64,000 bases of DNA. It comes from Candidatus Aenigmatarchaeota archaeon. Its GTDB lineage: Archaea > Aenigmatarchaeota > Aenigmatarchaeia > QMZS01. The position numbers and the translations under genes are program-made. Position 1 is the first letter of the stretch, and each line of letters opens with the position of its first letter. Under the pieces are notes generated by a model. The model made no database searches and had not been told where the DNA came from. It saw only the letters and a list, made by a program, of their open reading frames with translations. Below are positions 24,761-45,565 of the stretch, one piece after another. Location: the NCBI GenBank assembly GCA_016932615.1, contig JAFGCN010000009.1:146167-210166 (forward strand), read 5' to 3'.

Positions 24761-26416
24761 ATGAAAGGGGTTGCGGTTTCAGCCCAGCTTATGCTTATCC
24801 TGACGCTGGTCTTCCTGGGAACCATGATTCTTCTTGGAACCAGCACCAGCTCTACTCCAGTTTACTACAAAAATCTTGCAGAGAGCAAGTTTGCTGACCT
24901 TCTCATGAAGTATGAGCTCATAAAATCAAACATCAGGGATTCCCTTGAGGGAGAGTCGAGCCGGATGTTTTCTGCAATGGGCGATTATCCAATAGAGTGG
25001 TCCACAGTTGAAAGCGCTGCGCCTAGTGATGACGAGTGGTCCATCCTCTATAAGGAGAAGCTTTCAAGTGCCGCTCAGGGCTACCTTAACTCAGCGTCAA
25101 ACTCGGACTTCGAGTGGATAGAAATTTCGGAGAAGGAAAGCACAGTTACCTATGACTCTTCTGGCCCCAAGGTCGAATGGCACTATAAGTACAACATTAA
25201 TATTCAGAACGTGATTCCGGATGAGGATATAGCCAACAAGATAAACTCCGAGGAGGAGGTTTCAATAACCTATGATGATTTTCTGAATCTTGATGGCGCG
25301 TGGCACTGCGCAAAGGATTACTTTGCCAAATCTGCCTCCAGCGAAGGGGCTTTTTACTTTACTGAAATGTCCGACTACTTTTTAAACCAGGGCCTCGGGC
25401 AAAAGCTTAACCAGATAAAGCCGGATTCCTGCAGCGGCTTTAAGACCACCATGTCTGTTTTTAATGGAATTTCCTGCCCCGGTGGAACCTGCAGGCAGAG
25501 CCAAATGAAGCCCGTAGGGATAATCCTTCTAATAGAGCCATCCGGAAGCGGCAGGGGCGCTGTTTCGTTTATTCACAGGTATTCCAATTTCGCGGCGGGA
25601 AGCCCAAGCGCTTCCGGCGCTACAGGGCAGCCGTGCTCTCTTGGCTCCGAGTGCGGTACCCTGGACTGCGTGGGAGAGGTTTGCGGCAAGTGTCTGGAGG
25701 CATTTGAAAATTCGCTTTGCTCTCCTTCGGGCACTGGCCACCCCCCGGCAACTCACCGTTGCTACCGTGTTCTTTCCGGCTCGGGCAGCTATGAATACCG
25801 CTGCCTTCAGAACAAAGCATCCATTGGGCTTACGGACGGAACAAGGTGGTTTTTGAGCGGGCAGTCAATAAAGGTGAACTGCGCCCTGGAGGACGGGAGG
25901 TTTGAGGTCGGCGTCAGCGGCGCAACGTCAGACACAATTTCCGTTTCAAAAGTTTTGTTCAATGGAGTTGAGGTTAGCAGCGGAACGCAGAAAATAGAGC
26001 TTTGCGACACGGACGAAGTGCCTCCCGTGAACGGCCGGATTGAGGTTTACCTGGAGGAGGGAGGAGATGCCTACCGCGCTTTTGAGACGGGCGTGAGGTT
26101 TGCATTAAGTGAATGCGAAGATGAGGTTTCAAGCAAGCTTGGGGAGTATGTGTACAGCTTTGGCGAATCGGACTATGAAGAACTTCGCCGTGGAATAGAA
26201 ACGGCGGTGCGGGATGTTGCAAGGGGGGCTTCCTGCGAGGGATACAGGGTTTATGTGTCTGAAGTTATGTTTTCCTGCGGCTCTGATATAAGCGCCTGCT
26301 CCGGGACCACCACCTGGGACAGGGAGAAATATTCTCCTGTTACTGTGGAGTTTGAGGATGAAAGCACAGGCAATGTGGCGTTTCGGTCAACTTATATTAT
26401 CTCATATTCACCTTAG
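24761..26416 (+). CDS. Pilin-like or secreted Cys-rich protein. The ORF is open from 24674, but 24761 is the more plausible start.
   Basis: MKG followed by a hydrophobic helix (VAVSAQLMLILTLVFLGTMILLG) matches the archaeal class III signal pattern [K/R]G-hydrophobic. Many cysteines in the mature part. Convergent with the secretion ATPase gene. Confidence 0.5.
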   Translation: MKGVAVSAQLMLILTLVFLGTMILLGTSTSSTPVYYKNLAESKFADLLMKYELIKSNIRDSLEGESSRMFSAMGDYPIEWSTVESAAPSDDEWSILYKEKLSSAAQGYLNSASNSDFEWIEISEKESTVTYDSSGPKVEWHYKYNINIQNVIPDEDIANKINSEEEVSITYDDFLNLDGAWHCAKDYFAKSASSEGAFYFTEMSDYFLNQGLGQKLNQIKPDSCSGFKTTMSVFNGISCPGGTCRQSQMKPVGIILLIEPSGSGRGAVSFIHRYSNFAAGSPSASGATGQPCSLGSECGTLDCVGEVCGKCLEAFENSLCSPSGTGHPPATHRCYRVLSGSGSYEYRCLQNKASIGLTDGTRWFLSGQSIKVNCALEDGRFEVGVSGATSDTISVSKVLFNGVEVSSGTQKIELCDTDEVPPVNGRIEVYLEEGGDAYRAFETGVRFALSECEDEVSSKLGEYVYSFGESDYEELRRGIETAVRDVARGASCEGYRVYVSEVMFSCGSDISACSGTTTWDREKYSPVTVEFEDESTGNVAFRSTYIISYSP

Positions 26417-34861: not shown

Positions 34862-35126
34862 GCCCCTGTAGTCTAGCTCGGTCCAGGATATCGCCCTTTC
34901 GAGCAGGCCCTTCTTTGAAAAGGAGGCCTGGCGCACCCAAGAAAACATATTTCAAGGGATGGGAAAGGTTTGAGGCCGAACAGGCCGATGACAAGGAGAC
35001 AGGCGGAGACCCGGGGTCATTCCTTCTTTTAGAAAAAGAAGGTCTGACAACTCCAAGAAAAGGAGGTTACCGCTTCGCGAAATTCAGACGTGAAGTGGGT
35101 AGGGAATTCAAATCCCGGCAGGGGCA
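34862..35126 (+). tRNA. tRNA-Glu(UUC) with two long introns: ~99 nt after position 37 of the anticodon loop (34902..35000), and ~91 nt in the T-arm between the T-stem and T-loop (35016..35106).
   Basis: Acceptor GCCCCTG (34862-34868) pairs with CAGGGGC (35119-35125). Anticodon stem TCGCC/GGCGG with loop CTTTCG|..|A. T-stem CCGGG (35011-15) pairs with CCCGG (35114-18), with the canonical T-loop TTCAAAT. Discriminator A. The pairings were found by eye only. Confidence 0.6.
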
Positions 35127-36104: not shown

Positions 36105-36788
36105 ATGGCTAGGAGAATTCCGGCAATTTCTGCTAAAACGGCATTTCCTGCAATACTTGCCCTTGTTTTTATCCTGGCGGCATCCTTTTGCATCCAGATG
36201 TACAACGAAAATGCGCCTTTTCCAGGCATTTCGAAAACCCCTTCGGGCACAGATGACCTGAAAAATGGCCTTGGCAATGGAGAAACTTCTTCCAGCGGCC
36301 AGAATTCTGGAGAATCGGGTGAAGAAGGCGATGAAGATGATGAAGAGGAAGAAGAAGGAGATGATAGTAGAGGCACTGGGGGAGCTCCCGGCGGAGGCGG
36401 AGGAGCTTCGGGTGATGGCGGCGGAGGTGGCGGCGCACCTTCAGCAATAATAAACTTTACTAATATCGAAGACCCGGACCCGAAAATCAGGGTAATTTCC
36501 TCCTACAAGTGCGGCTCTGACATATGTTTTCAGGTAAAGGCCGCAGACGACAACCTTGTGGATATTTCCATGTCGGGGCTTGAAACCTATATAAACAGCG
36601 AACCGGTGTCCCCTATCGACTGGGAGGGTGGTGTAAGCGGCTCTTCGTGCATTTCAACGGAATTTCTTGAGCCGGGGCAGAGCTGTTTTGGCAAGATACT
36701 TTCCGCAGAGTGCCTTTCAACGGACATCTTCAGGGTTATTATTCCACTGGGCTTCGAGGCCTGGTCATATATATCCGAATGCGGCTGA
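36105..36788 (+). CDS. Secreted or membrane-anchored protein with acidic and Gly-rich low-complexity regions.
   Basis: N-terminal TM/signal, then GEEGDEDDEEEEEGDD and GGGGGASGDGGGGGGAP, then a C-terminal Cys-containing domain. Confidence 0.4.
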   Translation: MARRIPAISAKTAFPAILALVFILAASFCIQMYNENAPFPGISKTPSGTDDLKNGLGNGETSSSGQNSGESGEEGDEDDEEEEEGDDSRGTGGAPGGGGGASGDGGGGGGAPSAIINFTNIEDPDPKIRVISSYKCGSDICFQVKAADDNLVDISMSGLETYINSEPVSPIDWEGGVSGSSCISTEFLEPGQSCFGKILSAECLSTDIFRVIIPLGFEAWSYISECG

Positions 36789-36833
36789 TTTTGCCCAAAA
36801 AACTAGAATTAAGAACTTTTCAATTTAAGTTAT

Positions 36834-37108
36834 GCCGAGGTGGCGGAGCGGTTAACGCGCCTGGCTTGAGTGAAGCTTTTCTTTCCAAAGAAAAGCCCCA
36901 TGCGCAAAAGAAAGGATTATTCGAAAAAGCCCCGGGCTTTTTCATAAATCCGGCGCACTTAAAGCCTAGGAAACCAGGTTCCCACAAGGAGCGCAGGTAA
37001 AGACTTTCTTTTAGAAAAAGAAAGTCCTTAACGTCAAAGAAAACCAAATTCGCATATCACCGCGAAGTTGGCTGATTGGCGGTCTGCAATCGAATCCTGC
37101 CCTCGGCG
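36834..37108 (+). tRNA. tRNA-Ser(UGA)-like type II tRNA with two long introns: ~102 nt at the anticodon-loop 37/38 site (36871..36972) and ~91 nt in the T-arm/T-loop (36999..37089).
   Basis: Acceptor GCCGAGG (36834-40) pairs with CCTCGGC (37101-07). D-arm GCG/AGCGGTTAA/CGC. Anticodon stem CCTGG (36860-64) pairs with CCAGG (36974-78), with loop CTTGAG|..|A. Variable arm TTCCCACAAGGAGC. T-stem GCAGG (36993-97) pairs with CCTGC (37096-37100), with the T-loop T|..|TCGAAT. Discriminator G. Confidence 0.55.
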
Positions 37109-37128
37109 ATTATATTTCTCTCTAAATT

Positions 37129-37698
37129 ATGGACGACACAGAAAGAGCCATTGGCGTGCTAAAGCTGGGGGGAGTTATCGCTTACCCAACGGACACAGTC
37201 TACGGCCTTGGTGCAAACATCTTTGATGAGAATGCCATCAGGCGCGTTTTTGAAGTTAAAAGAAGGCCGCTTGGTAAGCCCATTTCGGTCATGGTTTCAG
37301 GCATTGAGATGCTTGAGCGGGTCGCTTACCTGTCGCCTGAAAACCGCAGTATTGCCAAAGAGCTTCTTCCGGGGCCGGTAACACTCATACTTCCTGCGAC
37401 AGAATTTGTCTCGACCCTTCTGACGGGCGGCACGGGGACAATCGGGGTGCGCTGGATTGAAAGCGATACAGTAAACAAAATTATCCTTGGCGCGGGCTTT
37501 CCGATAACAGCAACTTCGGCAAACTTGGCTGGAGGGTCGGACGCAAAGACGCCTGAAGAGCTGGCCGTGGAGCCGGATTTTGTTTTAACCGGAAACTGCG
37601 GGCTTGGGCAGCCCTCGACAGTGGTTGACCTGGTCGGAAAAAGAATCCTGAGGGAAGGCGCAGGGCTTGAAAAGGTAAAGCAGGCCTTAGAAGAATAG
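37129..37698 (+). CDS. tsaC: L-threonylcarbamoyladenylate synthase (YrdC/Sua5 domain, t6A biosynthesis).
   Basis: LKLGGVIAYPTDTVYGLGANIFDENAIRRVFEVKRRPLGKPISVMV is the YrdC signature. Confidence 0.75.
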   Translation: MDDTERAIGVLKLGGVIAYPTDTVYGLGANIFDENAIRRVFEVKRRPLGKPISVMVSGIEMLERVAYLSPENRSIAKELLPGPVTLILPATEFVSTLLTGGTGTIGVRWIESDTVNKIILGAGFPITATSANLAGGSDAKTPEELAVEPDFVLTGNCGLGQPSTVVDLVGKRILREGAGLEKVKQALEE

Positions 37699-39347: not shown

Positions 39348-39446
39348 GCCCTAGTAGCTCAGCTGGTTGAAGCTTGCCTTCAGGCTTCCGGCAAAGAGCG
39401 CGGGTTTCGTAAACCCGAGGTCGGGGGTTCGATCCCCCCCTAGGGC
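39348..39446 (+). tRNA. tRNA-Thr(CGU)-like gene, 99 nt. The canonical cloverleaf is interrupted by a ~25-nt insertion (non-canonical intron) inside the D-loop.
   Basis: Acceptor GCCCTAG/CTAGGGC. D-stem GCTC...GAGC separated by 35 nt instead of ~10. Anticodon arm CGGGT-TTCGTAA-ACCCG (U33, anticodon CGT, A37). Variable loop AGGTC. T-arm GGGGG-TTCGATC-CCCCC. A Leu(CAG) type-II fold was considered and is less consistent. Confidence 0.55.
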
Positions 39447-39556
39447 TATAATGTTTATCATGAGGACATTTCACCCGTAATGCTCCCGTTATGCAATCAT
39501 CTTCGAAAGTCCGAAATGATATATAACGTTTGAGGCAGTTATGATTATAGGATAAA

Positions 39557-42500
39557 ATGTCCAAAATATTTTTCGATGGGGGCAGTATTTCAAAAATTTT
39601 CCTTGCCTTCCTATTTGCGTTTTCACTTAATATTGCCTCGGTATCTGCGGCTTCTATATCAGGCCAATTTGAAGTGTCTGACACTATTACAAACCTAGGC
39701 ACTGTGGACTCAAGCAGGATTTCAAATATAATTTTGGACCGGGGGAGCGATGTGGTCTGGAGGGTATACCCTACGGGATACTGGAACTTGGGAGAATATC
39801 ACTTCTATGCAAAACTGGACAAGGTTTCAGGTAAGATTTACCTCCTTGCAAATTCTTCAAGCGAAGGCTCAGCCCTGGGTGTCATGATGCCTTCCATAAA
39901 TCTGCAGGATCGTTTTGGCCTTAGCCAGACCCCAGACTACACGCATTTTTGCGCTCAATATGATTCCACAAAGACTCTTTCTTATGATGTGCTTGCTCAG
40001 ACGGTTACAAGCCTAGCCTCCAGTGGTGCAATAGGGTCCGGAGCAACTCTATCAAAGGCACCGGTTTACAAAAGCAACTTCACGGACGGAGTTTATGTGC
40101 TCGGGTACTACATTTCTGCTTCTGAATTCGATGCTACCTCAAACAGCTTCCACAACTGGCCTTGGGGCACTGGAAGTGACGCATGCAAGTACTCAATTCT
40201 CTTTCCGATATGCGAATATAGCGAGGGTTCTGTAAGTGTGACCTTCAATATCGATAGCAGCCCAAGAAACTACCTGGTGTATGGTAGCCTATACAATGAC
40301 AACAATGAGAATACTTATTACCGGTATAATGGCGTCACATGGTTGCAGCGAAGCTACTGGGGACTGACCAATCAGGTAAGGTATGGCTCTTCTTCGGGCT
40401 ATCCCCAGCAAATAGAATTGTATGCAAGCAAGACCTGGTCAACAGTACACCCTTCAACTTGGATAGTGCTCGATACTGATTCAGTCAGTGTAACTGGAAC
40501 TCTGGCTGGGCAGGGCCCAACCAGTGTCAATGAAGCTGAAGCCCCAGACGTGCTTTACAAATTTAGCGTCACGAAAGCACCTCTTGATTGGCTTGAGGGC
40601 TCGGTGAGGAGAACAATAATAATAAACAACAGCGAGAGTTCCGAGGATCTTGCAAATTATCCTGTGTTGCTGCAGGTTCCTTATGATTTTTTCATGAGGC
40701 AGGATTATGGCGACCTTAGGTTTACTGACCTTGGCGAAAGCCCGTTAAATTACTGGATAGAGTCTTACAACGTAAGCTCTGCCGTTGTGTGGGTAAAGAT
40801 TCCATCAATTCCTGCTGGTGGAGAGACATCCATTTATATGTATTATGGTAACTCGACTCTCACGAACATTGGCAATGGCAACTTGGTTTTCCCTTTCTTT
40901 GAGGATTTCAATGACGGAAGTCTGGATCCATACTGGACCAAAGTCAATTCAGAGGCCAATATTTTTGAGAATAATGGGTATCTGGAGACTCCGGAATGCG
41001 GGGTTCCGGGAGAGGCAGACTGCAAATATGGATATGCTTTTGTTTACATGAACGCCGCTTCCAATGGAATCAGTATTAATCAGCCATTCAGGATAAAGCT
41101 GAAGACCTGGAACAAGGAGGACAGCGCTGGCGGTGAAGGGGCAGGAACTTTCATGTTCCGGGAAGTGCCTTACGTTGGAATTAACCCTAATGCAGTCTAT
41201 TTTTTGCATGGTGACCGGAATAATTATCCGGGGTTCTATGAAGGCCATGATGGGCCACTGAGTTTTGGAATTTACTCGCCGATGCAGGATAGGTGGATTT
41301 CTGAAGAATTCCTATATGACGGGAGTGGAATGGGTCTTTGGTTTGACGGGACAAAAAGAAGCACCACTGCATGGGCTTCTGCTGAGGGGTACGTTTCTCT
41401 TGGAAATTCAATAGGCAGCGATTCCTATTCGACAGACAACAATAAATGGGACGACCTATTCATGATGCAGGTGGCATCAAAAGAGCCAGTCGTGAAGCTT
41501 GGAGATATTGAAACTGGCGATGGAACAGAGGAACCCATTCAGAACATAATTTCCGCAAATATTTTGCTTTTTGATGAGGAATATAACCCACTATATTCCA
41601 GTATTGGTCAAGAAGAATCCACCGCATATTTGACTTTGAAAAAACCGCATTACTTAGATATCTTAGTCAATGGTACCGTTTCTACAGATTCGCAGATTAG
41701 TGTAGAACTTTATCAGGGGAGCACGCTTAAATTTTCGGAAGACTTGGACACAATAATACAGCAGGAGGGTTCATATGCCTATATAAAATCGGGTGAGATT
41801 TTCTCTGTTCCGGAAAGCGCAGGCATTGGCTCTGGATATAAATTAGTGGTTAAGCTGGGAGATTATGTATTGAATCAGGAGGTTTATCTTACTCCTTTTG
41901 AGGCTGTGCCGATTGATGTTTTTGGCCAGGAATATCCTGTGGCTGGAGAGGTCAGGTATTATGATATAAAGCCCTATGAGTTGAGCCATAACGGGAATGA
42001 AGTGGTGATTGCCTACCCGATTTTTGAGCAGCAATATTTCGAAAGCCTTAGTGATGAAGGATTTGGTGTTTCCGACCCGGAAAGAGTTAAAGCCTTGGTG
42101 CAAAAGCTGTCCGTGCTTGAGTTAGTGGGTTTGACGGAAGTTGCGGCAAAATATCCAAATGCCCGGTTTGTGGTTTTTAACGGGTTGAAAGGAGATGCTG
42201 AAGTAATCTCTCAGGTAGAAGGAAACATAAAGTCCGCAAGAGCATCAAACAAAAAGCCGCTCATAGTTGGTGCGATACCCCATGCAACCCAAACCTACAG
42301 CAATATAGTCACTACTAAGGCATACCGATCTTCATATATGAGTTATGCTTTGGCTTCTTCCATTAATGTTCTCAGAACCTGGGGAGGCGAAGACAGAGAA
42401 ACTTTTGTTTCAAGGCATTATCGGGGTGAAGAATACTTCCTTGCTTTAAATTCGACTGGAAAGTATTCAAAAGAAAGCTTTGGTGACCGGACCGAATCTC

Positions 42501-45500
42501 AGCCGGCGATGCTTGTGGCAATAGACGAAAATCCACTGCTTCAGGTGTCTCCTGCGATTGGCAATGACGCTAGAGATGAGGCTGGAAAGGATAATTATGA
42601 CTATTACCGAATTGGGACCTTAATTCCTCTAGGACATACCTATTACTTAGGTCTTGAAGCAGGAAAGTTCCCCCTTGCAGAGTTTAGCCTGAATCCTTCG
42701 ATGGCAGGATTAAAGTTTGGAAGAACCATTTTTAACTTCGGTCTTGAATTTGGAATAAATGCCGAGAGGACAGAAGACCGTGGGAAGATTTATGCCTATT
42801 TGGATATTGGTGCCATAATTACGGGTTTCCATGAAGAGTGGGACCTTTGGAAGGGAGCTATTAATGTGAATACGATTGACCAGGATGTCCAGCAGGGGGT
42901 TGACGATATTTGCGATATAGATACAGTTGTTCTTGGAAAAGTTGGAGATATTGAAATTGAAAATACCAACCTTAGAGGCATAATGACTTCTTTCAAGGAC
43001 ATTGTACTCTTCCTGTTTGTCCCAGAACCTGTGATTGCCAGGAATGAATTCCTGAGGTATGGATTTGAGCCTAGCAGTGTTCATACCTTGCTGGCAGATA
43101 CAACAAAGACGATGGCAACGCATAATCAGCCTGTTTCAGACACGGTTGTCTATGAGGCAGACAATTATCCTTCCAAGATGAGCCTGAATAATGCTGCAAT
43201 GAATCTTGCTGCCTTTGTCATAGACCTTGTGGAGTTTGGTGAGGGTGTGCTTCCGGTTGAGATTGAGCCAAGCCTCGAGGGTAAGATGCATATGGAGAAC
43301 TATCTCGGGTCTTCAGATAGCATCAATTCAATAATAGTTTCTGAAGACGTTGCTCTCACCTTGAGAGGTCTTGCCGTAGATGTTATTGAAGATCCTTGGG
43401 CAGATGTTCCTAGTGACATTAAAGATGTCGCTGGATACCTTAAAGATGAAACTTTTAAGTCCGTTGATGTCTTTGAGGAGATAACTCTTTCCGGATACGA
43501 GTATATCTCGGTAAGTATGGAGTATTTGGAATATAGCAGGTATGAAGATTTCGCAAGTGGGTTAGTGGAAGAATACCTCTACTATGAGTCCCTTGAGATG
43601 GAGTATATGGAGGTCTGGACCTCAAAAGTCAAGGTCAAGACAGGAACCATAGATTACGAGAAAATCAAGAAATACCTGAAATGGGTTAAGATTATTGCTG
43701 CAGGACTCGATGCATGGCTTCAGTACGAAGAGGCACAGAAGGTTGCAGGGTTCAATTCCAACCAGCTTTACTATATGGGTGACCCATACCTTACCGGTTA
43801 TGATGACCCGGTTTACAGCTTTTCGGTGGACGCTTTGCCTGAGCAGGTGCAAATACACATAAGGTCTGAGCCAAGGTTGATGGAGGTTATGGACACAAGT
43901 ATGATTTATCCAAGCGTGACCGAACTCGAGATACCAGATATGACTGCAAAAGTGCTGGTAGAAGATTATACTCCCTACACAGGAGCCCCTCAGACGCCAA
44001 GTTTCATAATCTCAATATTTCACCCCAGAAATCAGGAGATCTACAATATTTCCTATGGGCTCTTAAGTCCCCAGAATTTTGAAAATGTAGACCTTGCAAT
44101 GGGGGCTCTGGTTGTCGGTGAGGAGAGCCTTCCGGGCTTGATACCAGAATATGAATACTATCCGAAAGAAAGCCTGGTTTCCAGCACGGAAGATGTTGCA
44201 AATTATGCCCATACTGTGATCATGCTGTTCCCAACTAAGTATTACTCAGACAAGCACTTGGACTACTACAAGGATGTCTGGCTTAACTTCAGTGTTATGA
44301 CTCGTTCTACAGAGCTAAATACTGAGCTTCAAGTGTATCCAAATGTAGTGGTCACAGAAAGAGGTTCTGAGACTAAGGTTACTCTGCGTCTAGTCAATGA
44401 TATACTTTCCGGTGAAAATACCGCAGTAAATGTTACCTTTAGGGTGCCCGAAGGGATACTGCTTGGGGGAGGCGACCTAGAGAATGTGGTGCTTGGCAAT
44501 ACCCCCTCTGATTACAGCAGGGACTTTTTGTATGAAGTAAGCATTCCCGCAAGCACGGAGCTAGGGGCGTATTATATAAATATGAACCTTTCTGGATATG
44601 AAGGTTCGGAAAGGATTTACAGGGACTATGCGCTTCCAGTTATTGTTACTCGCAGGGACTTGGTGGACAATAATCTGCTTGAGTGGACAGTTCCTCCCAG
44701 GATGCAGATGGGAGTCGAGAATAAAGTTTCAGTGAAGGTAAGAAACGACGGAGAAATTAAAAATGTAGCCCTTCCAGTGAGACTTTTTCTAAACGATGAG
44801 CTAATTGATACACAAACAATAGGCATTATTGGTCCTGGCGAAGTTGTTGAACTGAACTTTACCGTTGTTCCTGAGCTAACTGGTCTAAGCAACCTTACCA
44901 TTGCAGTGGTTTCAGCGCCCAACGAGTTTGAGCTTGAAAACAACATTAAGTCGGCATTGGTTGAAGTGTCTGAGGATATATGCCCTCCAATGATAACTCT
45001 CGCCACACCTTCAGATGGAGCCGTTTACTTCCTCAACCAGCAGGTCCTTGCCGATTACGAATGCACCGACGCTCTCAGCGGAGTCACCTCATGCACGGGA
45101 GCGGTTGAACTCGGAAGCCTAATTGACACTGCAAGCCTTGGCATTAAGTCCTTTACGGTTGCTTCAGCAGATAATGCGGGTAACACTGCAGAAAAAACTG
45201 TCTCCTACAGCGTCCAGTATTCTTACAGCGGAATCCTCAGGCCAATTGACCCCGATGGCACAAGTGTCTTCAAGCTCGGAAGCACGGTTCCGGTAAAGTT
45301 TAAGCTAACTGACGCTAGTGGGAACTTTGTTAAGACTGCGGTTGCAAAAATTTACCTGTCTAAAATAAGCAATGGCGTTATGGGAACAGAGGTTGATGCT
45401 GTGTCTACAAGCCAGGCTTCGACGGGAAACCTGTTTAGGTATGATGAAACTGCTAACCAATACGTGTTTAATCTTGCTACAAAATCTATGACGGTTGGAA

Positions 45501-45565
45501 CCTGGAAGATAAGAATTTTGCTGGATGATGGCACTTCCCGGTATGTAACCCTGGGCCTCAGGTAA
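39557..45565 (+). CDS. Giant secreted surface protein (2002 aa) with a signal peptide. It shares a jelly-roll-type module with the first giant protein and has Big-like domains near the C-terminus. No C-terminal TM.
   Basis: Signal MSKIF...LAFLFAFSLNIASVSA. The module IYMYYGNSTLTN...FPFFEDFNDGSLDPYW parallels VYMYYNNSGVST...FLLFDDFNDASLDTDKW in the 1..5327 protein. Confidence 0.7.
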   Translation: MSKIFFDGGSISKIFLAFLFAFSLNIASVSAASISGQFEVSDTITNLGTVDSSRISNIILDRGSDVVWRVYPTGYWNLGEYHFYAKLDKVSGKIYLLANSSSEGSALGVMMPSINLQDRFGLSQTPDYTHFCAQYDSTKTLSYDVLAQTVTSLASSGAIGSGATLSKAPVYKSNFTDGVYVLGYYISASEFDATSNSFHNWPWGTGSDACKYSILFPICEYSEGSVSVTFNIDSSPRNYLVYGSLYNDNNENTYYRYNGVTWLQRSYWGLTNQVRYGSSSGYPQQIELYASKTWSTVHPSTWIVLDTDSVSVTGTLAGQGPTSVNEAEAPDVLYKFSVTKAPLDWLEGSVRRTIIINNSESSEDLANYPVLLQVPYDFFMRQDYGDLRFTDLGESPLNYWIESYNVSSAVVWVKIPSIPAGGETSIYMYYGNSTLTNIGNGNLVFPFFEDFNDGSLDPYWTKVNSEANIFENNGYLETPECGVPGEADCKYGYAFVYMNAASNGISINQPFRIKLKTWNKEDSAGGEGAGTFMFREVPYVGINPNAVYFLHGDRNNYPGFYEGHDGPLSFGIYSPMQDRWISEEFLYDGSGMGLWFDGTKRSTTAWASAEGYVSLGNSIGSDSYSTDNNKWDDLFMMQVASKEPVVKLGDIETGDGTEEPIQNIISANILLFDEEYNPLYSSIGQEESTAYLTLKKPHYLDILVNGTVSTDSQISVELYQGSTLKFSEDLDTIIQQEGSYAYIKSGEIFSVPESAGIGSGYKLVVKLGDYVLNQEVYLTPFEAVPIDVFGQEYPVAGEVRYYDIKPYELSHNGNEVVIAYPIFEQQYFESLSDEGFGVSDPERVKALVQKLSVLELVGLTEVAAKYPNARFVVFNGLKGDAEVISQVEGNIKSARASNKKPLIVGAIPHATQTYSNIVTTKAYRSSYMSYALASSINVLRTWGGEDRETFVSRHYRGEEYFLALNSTGKYSKESFGDRTESQPAMLVAIDENPLLQVSPAIGNDARDEAGKDNYDYYRIGTLIPLGHTYYLGLEAGKFPLAEFSLNPSMAGLKFGRTIFNFGLEFGINAERTEDRGKIYAYLDIGAIITGFHEEWDLWKGAINVNTIDQDVQQGVDDICDIDTVVLGKVGDIEIENTNLRGIMTSFKDIVLFLFVPEPVIARNEFLRYGFEPSSVHTLLADTTKTMATHNQPVSDTVVYEADNYPSKMSLNNAAMNLAAFVIDLVEFGEGVLPVEIEPSLEGKMHMENYLGSSDSINSIIVSEDVALTLRGLAVDVIEDPWADVPSDIKDVAGYLKDETFKSVDVFEEITLSGYEYISVSMEYLEYSRYEDFASGLVEEYLYYESLEMEYMEVWTSKVKVKTGTIDYEKIKKYLKWVKIIAAGLDAWLQYEEAQKVAGFNSNQLYYMGDPYLTGYDDPVYSFSVDALPEQVQIHIRSEPRLMEVMDTSMIYPSVTELEIPDMTAKVLVEDYTPYTGAPQTPSFIISIFHPRNQEIYNISYGLLSPQNFENVDLAMGALVVGEESLPGLIPEYEYYPKESLVSSTEDVANYAHTVIMLFPTKYYSDKHLDYYKDVWLNFSVMTRSTELNTELQVYPNVVVTERGSETKVTLRLVNDILSGENTAVNVTFRVPEGILLGGGDLENVVLGNTPSDYSRDFLYEVSIPASTELGAYYINMNLSGYEGSERIYRDYALPVIVTRRDLVDNNLLEWTVPPRMQMGVENKVSVKVRNDGEIKNVALPVRLFLNDELIDTQTIGIIGPGEVVELNFTVVPELTGLSNLTIAVVSAPNEFELENNIKSALVEVSEDICPPMITLATPSDGAVYFLNQQVLADYECTDALSGVTSCTGAVELGSLIDTASLGIKSFTVASADNAGNTAEKTVSYSVQYSYSGILRPIDPDGTSVFKLGSTVPVKFKLTDASGNFVKTAVAKIYLSKISNGVMGTEVDAVSTSQASTGNLFRYDETANQYVFNLATKSMTVGTWKIRILLDDGTSRYVTLGLR

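Follow-up and report, generated by a model that had tools for sequence, protein, structure and literature searches.

In archaeal pre-tRNAs, the cut sites for intron removal lie in 3-nt bulges flanking a 4-bp helix, and cleavage takes place after the second base of the bulge (PMC4090602). Genes with multiple introns, introns in the T-loop and relaxed forms of this BHB motif are established in archaea, including DPANN lineages (PMC4090602, PMC5829648). In Pyrobaculum islandicum, for example, the tRNA-Pro(UGG) gene contains introns at positions 25/26, 37/38 and 56/57 (PMC4090602). More generally, in the account given in PMC4090602, which cites Sugahara 2007/2008 and Fujishima 2010, the Crenarchaeota have multiple introns, with 53/54, 56/57 and 59/60 listed as sites in the T region, and families of similar introns across many tRNA genes. 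Disrupted tRNA genes together with broad-specificity endonucleases are also established for some DPANN lineages (PMC3239211, PMC5829648). Relaxed BHB substrates are cut only by such broad-specificity enzymes, which are known in DPANN archaea and include the ARMAN-2 epsilon2 enzyme and the L3-loop alpha4 enzymes (PMC5829648, PMC3239211). Two further cases are the tRNA-Glu(UUC) gene of M. kandleri, which has a D-loop intron as well as a canonical one (PMC3239211, PMC5829648), and the long tRNA-Trp intron of the Euryarchaeota, in which a box C/D guide RNA is nested (PMC4090602). Furthermore, Kaneta et al. have argued that the incomplete tRNA sets of DPANN genomes point to undetected disrupted genes (PMC5829648).

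In this paper, we have analysed a 64-kb stretch of DNA (the window) from a Candidatus Aenigmarchaeota archaeon, a DPANN organism with ~48% G+C. With high confidence, the segment 36834-37108 of this window is a tRNA-Ser(UGA) gene, the precursor of which contains two protein-spliced archaeal introns. Multi-intron archaeal tRNA genes are already known as a kind, and this gene belongs there. It shares with those of the Crenarchaeota/Thermoproteales the combination of a canonical intron at 37/38 and a non-canonical T-region intron in one gene, a (relaxed) BHB motif at every junction, and the fact of being missed by standard finders. It differs from them in its DPANN host, in the insertion at 54/55 and in the size of its introns, which are ~100 nt each, compared with reported medians of 12-25 nt and a range of 11-129 nt (PMC4090602). 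With the disrupted tRNA genes of DPANN archaea and Methanopyrus it shares non-canonical and multiple introns and relaxed BHB motifs; Aenigmarchaeota were absent from the genomes analysed in those studies (PMC3239211, PMC5829648). Unusual length, the 37/38 site and internal conserved structure are also found in the tRNA-Trp intron of the Euryarchaeota (PMC4090602). In contrast to that intron, however, neither intron of the window gene contains a C box (RUGAUGA), intron 2 alone has a lone CUGA, and no Rfam C/D family matches the region, so that a box C/D RNA-bearing intron was rejected. What is unusual here is the presence of two ~100 nt introns in one gene, their modular conserved architecture and the fact that the tRNA genes of the lineage appear to be saturated with introns. 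We found no description of such introns in Aenigmarchaeota in the literature, the coverage of which was incomplete, and this is weak evidence of novelty.

Exons, identity and orthologues of the predicted gene

The predicted gene occupies 275 nt of the plus strand (36834-37108) and would yield a mature tRNA of 82 nt. Exon 1 (36834-36870, 37 nt), with the sequence GCCGAGG-TG-GCG-GAGCGGTTAA-CGC-G-CCTGG-CTTGAG, comprises the 5' strand of the acceptor stem, the D arm, the 5' strand of the anticodon stem and loop positions 32-37, and holds the anticodon UGA (TGA, 36867-36869). Exon 2 (36973-36998, 26 nt; A-CCAGG-TTCCCACAAGGAGC-GCAGG-T) supplies A38, the 3' strand of the anticodon stem, a 14-nt variable arm, the 5' strand of the T stem and T54. 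Exon 3 (37090-37108, 19 nt; TCGAAT-CCTGC-CCTCGGC-G) supplies positions 55-60 of the T-loop, the 3' strands of the T and acceptor stems and the discriminator G73 at 37108; CCA is not encoded. In the joined exons, the four stems are fully complementary, with 7 bp in the acceptor stem, 3 bp in the D stem and 5 bp each in the anticodon and T stems. The anticodon loop reads CUUGAGA and the T-loop TTCGAAT, and the 14-nt variable region contains a 3-bp stem; G18G19 and U33 are present as well. The predicted junctions are GGCTTGAG/ACCAGG between exons 1 and 2 and GCAGGT/TCGAAT between exons 2 and 3, or, over longer stretches, CCTGGCTTGAG/ACCAGGTTCCC and GCGCAGGT/TCGAATCCTGCC, the stroke marking the point of joining. 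Serine identity is marked by a long variable arm, the anticodon UGA and the discriminator G73. All three are seen in the joined exons (the 14-nt variable region, TGA at 36867-36869 and G at 37108), and ARAGORN reads the 82-nt sequence as a type-II tRNA-Ser(tga). The original prediction, made from the letters of the window, had described these same exon and intron elements, the complementarity of the four stems, the restored T-loop TTCGAAT and the variable arm with its 3-bp stem, and we find each of them in place; its assignment to tRNA-Ser(UGA) has gained the support of ARAGORN, homology and covariation.

Directly upstream, the A/T-rich region 36806-36833, read from the sequence, carries GAATTAAGAA at -28 to -19 and TTAT immediately before +1, and is possibly an archaeal TATA-like promoter; the orthologues described below likewise show A/T-rich boxes and (T)TTAT before G1. 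A diphthine synthase gene, the product of which is 100% identical to a protein of a Candidatus Aenigmarchaeota archaeon, is located 2 kb upstream of the tRNA-Ser gene. The ORF 36105-36788 (plus strand), likewise upstream of the tRNA-Ser gene, contains a long acidic, glycine-rich low-complexity stretch. A gene of the Sua5/YrdC type (threonylcarbamoyl-adenylate synthase family, involved in tRNA modification) starts 20 nt after the tRNA-Ser 3' end (37109-37131), and the two might be co-transcribed; in L002, the tRNA-Ser gene is not adjacent to sua5. Further downstream, the ORF 39557-45565 (plus strand) encodes 2002 aa with DUF2341 and CARDB domains, probably a surface protein.

In its unspliced form, the gene at 36834-37108 was missed by both ARAGORN and Rfam RF00005, in the raw window (at the gathering score and at E <= 10) as well as in a 351-nt region (E <= 10), as expected for general tRNA models faced with two long introns. 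From the raw window, both programs report only a tRNA-Thr near 39.4 kb. The window holds two tRNA genes besides tRNA-Ser. One, tRNA-Glu(UUC) (34862-35126, plus strand), has two long introns of the same family, at 34902-35000 (99 nt, 37/38) and 35016-35106 (91 nt, 53/54), and its joined 75 nt are recognised by ARAGORN as tRNA-Glu(ttc); at its T-loop junction, three of the four pairs of the central helix are formed. The other, tRNA-Thr(CGU) (39348-39447, plus strand; Rfam 58 bits), has a 29-nt insert in the D-loop, and ARAGORN places it at 39376-39447 instead, as a misfolded structure whose acceptor stem is mismatched. Hence the window has no uninterrupted tRNA gene among its three. Since one of the three is detected by ARAGORN and Rfam, and that one is misfolded by ARAGORN, the tRNA sets of such DPANN genomes will look incomplete, which distorts inferences on completeness and codon usage. 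The window thus provides a case of the hidden disrupted genes predicted by Kaneta et al. (PMC5829648).

As a model with two free introns carries a risk of over-fitting, independent support was sought from a pattern scan, homology and covariation. The exon 3 pattern TCRAATCCTGCCCTCGGCG (with R allowed at position 3) was scanned over one genome per prokaryotic species and matched 91 stretches, ~70 of which are 3' ends of archaeal tRNA-Ser genes, mostly from DPANN and Thermoplasmatota; 42 of these ~70 genes are uninterrupted and 82-87 nt long. The joined exons are identical at 67/82 positions to an uninterrupted tRNA-Ser(UGA) of the Undinarchaeota. This and the other uninterrupted UGA isoacceptors share the anticodon loop CTTGAGA with the joined exons, and the identity of the loop supports the junction between G37 and A38. 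Furthermore, an alignment of 16 tRNA-Ser sequences (3 spliced in silico and 13 naturally uninterrupted) pairs in 98.4% of the cells of the cloverleaf, compared with 85.5% in shuffles and 34-45% when the partners are slid; none of 500 shuffles was as good as the real alignment, and the D, anticodon and variable stems show compensatory changes. The fit of 36834-37108 to a tRNA-Ser is far more than chance.

Orthologues were found in four related genomes, in line with the comparison to relatives that the original prediction had proposed and alongside the matching archaeal tRNA-Ser 3' ends. They are L002 (found by synteny with diphthine synthase; the same sequence occurs in L003, L004 and L091), L090 and L084 (both found by genome scan) and L114 (found by metagenome scan). 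The mature sequences of these four are identical to that of the window at 75-80 of 82 positions (91-98%), and their differences include a change from C-G to G-U at pair 27:43. The first 18 nt of exon 1 are identical in L002, L090 and L084, and L114 differs at position 16 only. The introns are far more variable: where both genomes hold a long copy the identity is 64-77%, and the lengths range from 37 to 106 nt at 37/38 and from 0 to 149 nt in the T-loop. L002, L090 and L084 carry a T-loop intron at 53/54 or 54/55 and, unlike the window gene, have the D-loop interrupted by a third intron. L114, on the other hand, carries the 37/38 intron only; its exon 2 is identical to that of the window and runs straight into the T-loop, so that its T arm GCGCAGGTTCGAGTCCTGCC is contiguous. 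This natural intron-less allele confirms the exon 2/exon 3 junction.

Predicted splice junctions and competing readings

We have tested the introns against the BHB rule, whereby the exon bases 5 to 2 nt upstream of the 5' cut pair with the intron bases 6 to 3 nt upstream of the 3' exon. Intron 1 (36871-36972, 102 nt), at the canonical position 37/38, obeys this rule, matches the intron-family profile and is orthologous to the 37/38 intron of L090, to which it is identical at 75/97 positions. In its central helix, C32 U33 U34 G35 (36865-36868) face UAGG (36967-36970), giving two Watson-Crick and two G-U pairs (CUUG/UAGG); the bulges are 36869-36871 (AG/U) and 36971-36973 (AA/A), the outer helix of 6 bp continues into the anticodon stem, and the inner helix has 1 bp. 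Intron 2 (36999-37089, 91 nt) interrupts the T-loop at 54/55. Here the T-stem bases 49-52 (GCAG, 36993-36996) form four Watson-Crick pairs with CUGC (37084-37087), a helix that is also present in the unconstrained MFE structure of the precursor; the bulges are 36997-36999 (GU/A) and 37088-37090 (AA/U), the outer helix has 0 bp, and the inner helix has 1 bp followed by the family hairpin. No other registers than these agree with the archaeal BHB rule: the helix is broken when the junction of intron 1 is moved by one base to either side (hand check), and for intron 2 the sequence leaves a single placement. When each gene was scanned exhaustively for BHB motifs, many chance motifs appeared in the A/U-rich repeats, so that the scan is informative only with the tRNA constraint. 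Hence the junctions 36870/36973 and 36998/37090 of the original prediction show the required register and 4-bp helix, in relaxed motifs, and its placement of the introns in the anticodon loop and T-loop is borne out and refined to 37/38 and 54/55.

Both motifs fall short of the strict hBHBh' form, in which the flanking helices are >=2 bp. Although the bulge register fits in both introns, the 5' sites are placed where several helices join, the central helix there meeting hairpins of the intron itself, and some of the bulge bases are paired in the MFE structure; the 5' cut site of intron 2 is at a three-way junction and not in a simple bulge. A fold constrained to the cloverleaf and both BHB motifs lies 12.7 kcal/mol above the computed MFE, in which the 5' strand of the anticodon stem is paired with an intron mimic, GCCUAGG. 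Since both introns have relaxed BHB motifs, a broad-specificity EndA is required (PMC5829648); a tblastn search with an M. jannaschii EndA sequence as the query found no EndA gene in the window or in any of the loci. Lacking an outer helix and having its 5' cut at a three-way junction, the T-loop intron makes high demands on the enzyme, and could help to define the specificity of DPANN splicing endonucleases.

Comparison of the five genes (that of the window and the four orthologues) supports the same registers. They contain 12 junctions, of which 11 form all four pairs of the central helix and one forms three, and by chance four pairs are expected at ~2% of random junctions. The partner in the intron 1 helix varies (UAGG, CAGG, CAAG, AAAG), with pairing kept in 4/5 genes. 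The T-loop registers are one base apart, at 54/55 in the window and L084 and at 53/54 in L002 and L090. In L084, the T-loop intron is a minimal element of 33 nt, consisting of a hairpin that directly closes the BHB motif and an exon-complementary tail.

From these features we infer the following pathway of maturation. Transcription would give a precursor of ~275 nt with both introns, in which the anticodon-loop bases 32-35 would pair with the four bases of intron 1 just upstream of its last two, which would bring both cut sites into 3-nt bulges adjoining the anticodon stem. In the same precursor, the T-stem strand GCAG would pair with CUGC of intron 2 instead of its mature partner, and this would create the same geometry of helix and bulges. 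The tRNA splicing endonuclease (EndA) would then cut after the second base of each bulge, and a ligase, presumably of the RtcB type, would join the three exons. Ligation would allow the T arm and the anticodon loop to form, and the addition of CCA would probably come last.

Three other explanations of the locus have been weighed. The locus might be a dead tRNA-Ser gene, broken by two inserted repeat elements and left unspliced, with its function supplied from elsewhere in the genome. That the inserts belong to a repeat family which is apparently spreading, that the BHB motifs are relaxed and that the BHB conformer is not the MFE structure would fit such a history. However, across five diverged genomes the exons remain 91-98% identical and fully paired, whereas the inserts change in sequence, length and number, and the tail of every insert remains complementary to the exon of its own host in the register needed for splicing. 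Moreover, interruptions are found in each of the three tRNA genes of the window and in all host genes seen in the relatives, and these genes cannot all be dead; we therefore regard the loss of function as highly unlikely, and a live, spliced gene as the preferred reading.

A different objection concerns the register of the T-loop intron, which could be excised with the T stem serving as the outer helix. The introns of L002 and L090 can indeed form a textbook BHB motif of this kind (outer helix 5 bp, central 4 bp, inner 3 bp), with UGAA pairing with UUCA and a resulting T-loop UGAAGAU. In the window, however, only two of the four pairs of the equivalent helix are formed, and in L084 three of the four (hand check). 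The product would also lack the universal U55-C56, whereas TTCRAAT is kept in all the orthologues and is contiguous with the T stem in L114. This register, which fails in the window and would destroy U55-C56, was rejected as extremely improbable, and excision at 54/55 is retained. Finally, the gap might encode another structured RNA, such as the SRP RNA that the original prediction had raised, or a small protein, the tRNA-like pieces being coincidental. The region does fold well (z = -5.0), and the non-coding gap at 36789-37128 is, as originally described, overlapped by two ORFs, 36710-37000 on the plus strand and 36820-37047 on the minus strand, of 96 and 75 codons, respectively. Yet these ORFs run across the tRNA exons, and large indels in the intron stretches of the orthologues preclude their conservation. 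Rfam scans of the whole window (E <= 10) and of 36780-37130 alone gave only noise in the region (E >= 2, all far below the gathering scores). SRP RNA was absent from the matches at E <= 10, so that this suggestion found no support and was rejected. Against the overwhelming evidence for a tRNA from ARAGORN, homology and covariation, the chance that the gap encodes something else is close to negligible.

The intron family and its distribution

The two introns of the tRNA-Ser gene are similar to one another and to the pair found in the tRNA-Glu gene nearby, with which they share a common layout. An element starts with 1-4 nt, followed by a hairpin of 13-16 bp whose 5' strand consists of pyrimidines alone and whose 3' strand consists of purines alone; then come a purine motif, CAAAGAAA or CCAAGAAA, and a variable 3' part, often with a hairpin whose loop is AUAUCAC; the end consists of 4 nt complementary to the host exon and a further 2 nt. 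In intron 1, the family hairpin is at 36875-36896 (GCUUUUCUUU / AAAGAAAAGC; seen in the MFE fold, the family profile and the hairpin survey) and the purine-rich motif, identified from intron alignments, at 36905-36913 (CAAAAGAAA). In intron 2, the family hairpin at 37000-37028 (GACUUUCUUUU-AGA-AAAAGAAAGUC plus flanking pairs; MFE fold and hairpin survey) contains an exact 17-mer, TTCTTTTAGAAAAAGAA (at 37006), that recurs in the tRNA-Glu intron at 35024. It is followed by the purine-rich motif at 37035-37042 (CAAAGAAA, from the same alignments) and by a second hairpin in the MFE fold at 37049-37066 (UUCGC / GCGAA, with the loop AUAUCACC). The loop AUAUCAC(C), at 37054-37061 in the window, recurs on differing stems in introns of L005, L090, L101, L105 and L106.

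Within the 64-kb window, a profile of the 5' module finds no more than the introns of tRNA-Glu and tRNA-Ser, four in all, and it has no match in ~700 kb of other archaeal loci, close relatives excepted. When metagenome contigs were scanned with a 22-nt motif, 16 loci were found, all of them inside tRNA genes. After in-silico splicing, ARAGORN recognised the hosts as Arg(TCT), Ala(GGC), Ala(CGC), Val(CAC), Lys(CTT), Ser(TGA), Ser(GGA), Ser(GCT) and Glu; a tRNA-Trp(CCA) host was assigned by eye alone, and its hand-spliced version has no clean ARAGORN isotype. Among the related metagenome contigs, the family thus occurs in at least nine tRNA types besides tRNA-Ser(UGA), with insertions in the D-loop and at 37/38, 53/54, 54/55 and 59/60. 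The tails follow their hosts: CGCA faces UGCG or UGUG in Ser and Arg, CGUG faces CACG or CAUG in Ala, and UUCA faces UGAA at 59/60. This covariation of the intron tails with the host exons strongly supports, on comparative grounds, BHB splicing for the family as a whole. As to the hairpin, no structure was obtained with RNAalifold from 13 intron 5' modules aligned by MAFFT, since the alignment does not keep the hairpins in register. Pairing was assessed instead by folding each sequence and counting pairs, and in 34 distinct copies the family hairpin is always paired, with exchanges from C-G to U-A at several positions.

These observations lead to a tentative proposal, to which we give slightly less than an even chance. 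Both introns may be copies of an undescribed family of long (~33-150 nt) modular introns that spread into most tRNA genes of a single Aenigmatarchaeota lineage, inserting at no fewer than five positions, and in which the hairpin, the CAAAGAAA motif and the AUAUCAC loop would be selected for the spread of the element or for a function of the excised RNA and not for splicing. On this view, splicing would not need the conserved modules, as short derivatives keep only the hairpin and the exon-complementary tail. A search of viral contigs for two intron motifs gave no match.

Two copies have an unusual arrangement. At 1640-1755 of L109, the 5' module is present twice in the T-loop intron of a Trp-like host, the two copies facing opposite ways, and at 5170-5320 of L090 (reverse strand), the tRNA-Ser T-loop intron has a 45-nt insert nested inside the family hairpin. 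The inverted copy and the nested insert hint at insertion at the DNA level. Similar introns at differing positions and in different tRNA genes of one lineage, the mark of the transposed families of the Thermoproteales, are found here too, and the distribution of the family suggests an intron spread like that described for that group. Compared with the transposition families of Fujishima et al. 2010, as they are summarised in PMC4090602, the present family is in another phylum, is much longer and is modular, its particular features being the pyrimidine/purine hairpin, the CAAAGAAA motif, the AUAUCAC loop, one inverted copy and one nested insertion. The lineage would represent a second, independent case of tRNA-intron proliferation, and the presence or absence of introns among close relatives, together with the nested and inverted copies, offers material on how BHB introns move.

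Introns of other kinds were met in the same survey. Another group of Aenigmatarchaeota (L077, L030, L080, L061, L098, L011, L058, L037 and L057) has a different 37/38 intron of ~100 nt in tRNA-Ser(UGA), with box C/D-like motifs in the order ATGATGA ... TGGCTTGACTCTGA ... GGCGG ... ATGAGGAG, and additional introns occur in several of these genes, in the variable arm or close to the acceptor/D region. In the window itself, a weak match to a box C/D sRNA (Rfam sR3, 19.9 bits, E = 0.85), with ATGATGA and CTGA boxes, is located at 25268-25311 on the plus strand. In addition, the tRNA-Ser genes of L076 and L042 (both from the uncultured archaeon SRP216583_co2_141) and of L075 (Brockarchaeota) have the same 3' end and short, unrelated introns in the T region, that of L076 being 19 nt long (GCAGGT-AAGCTGAAAGCGCTCTGCA-TTCAAAT).
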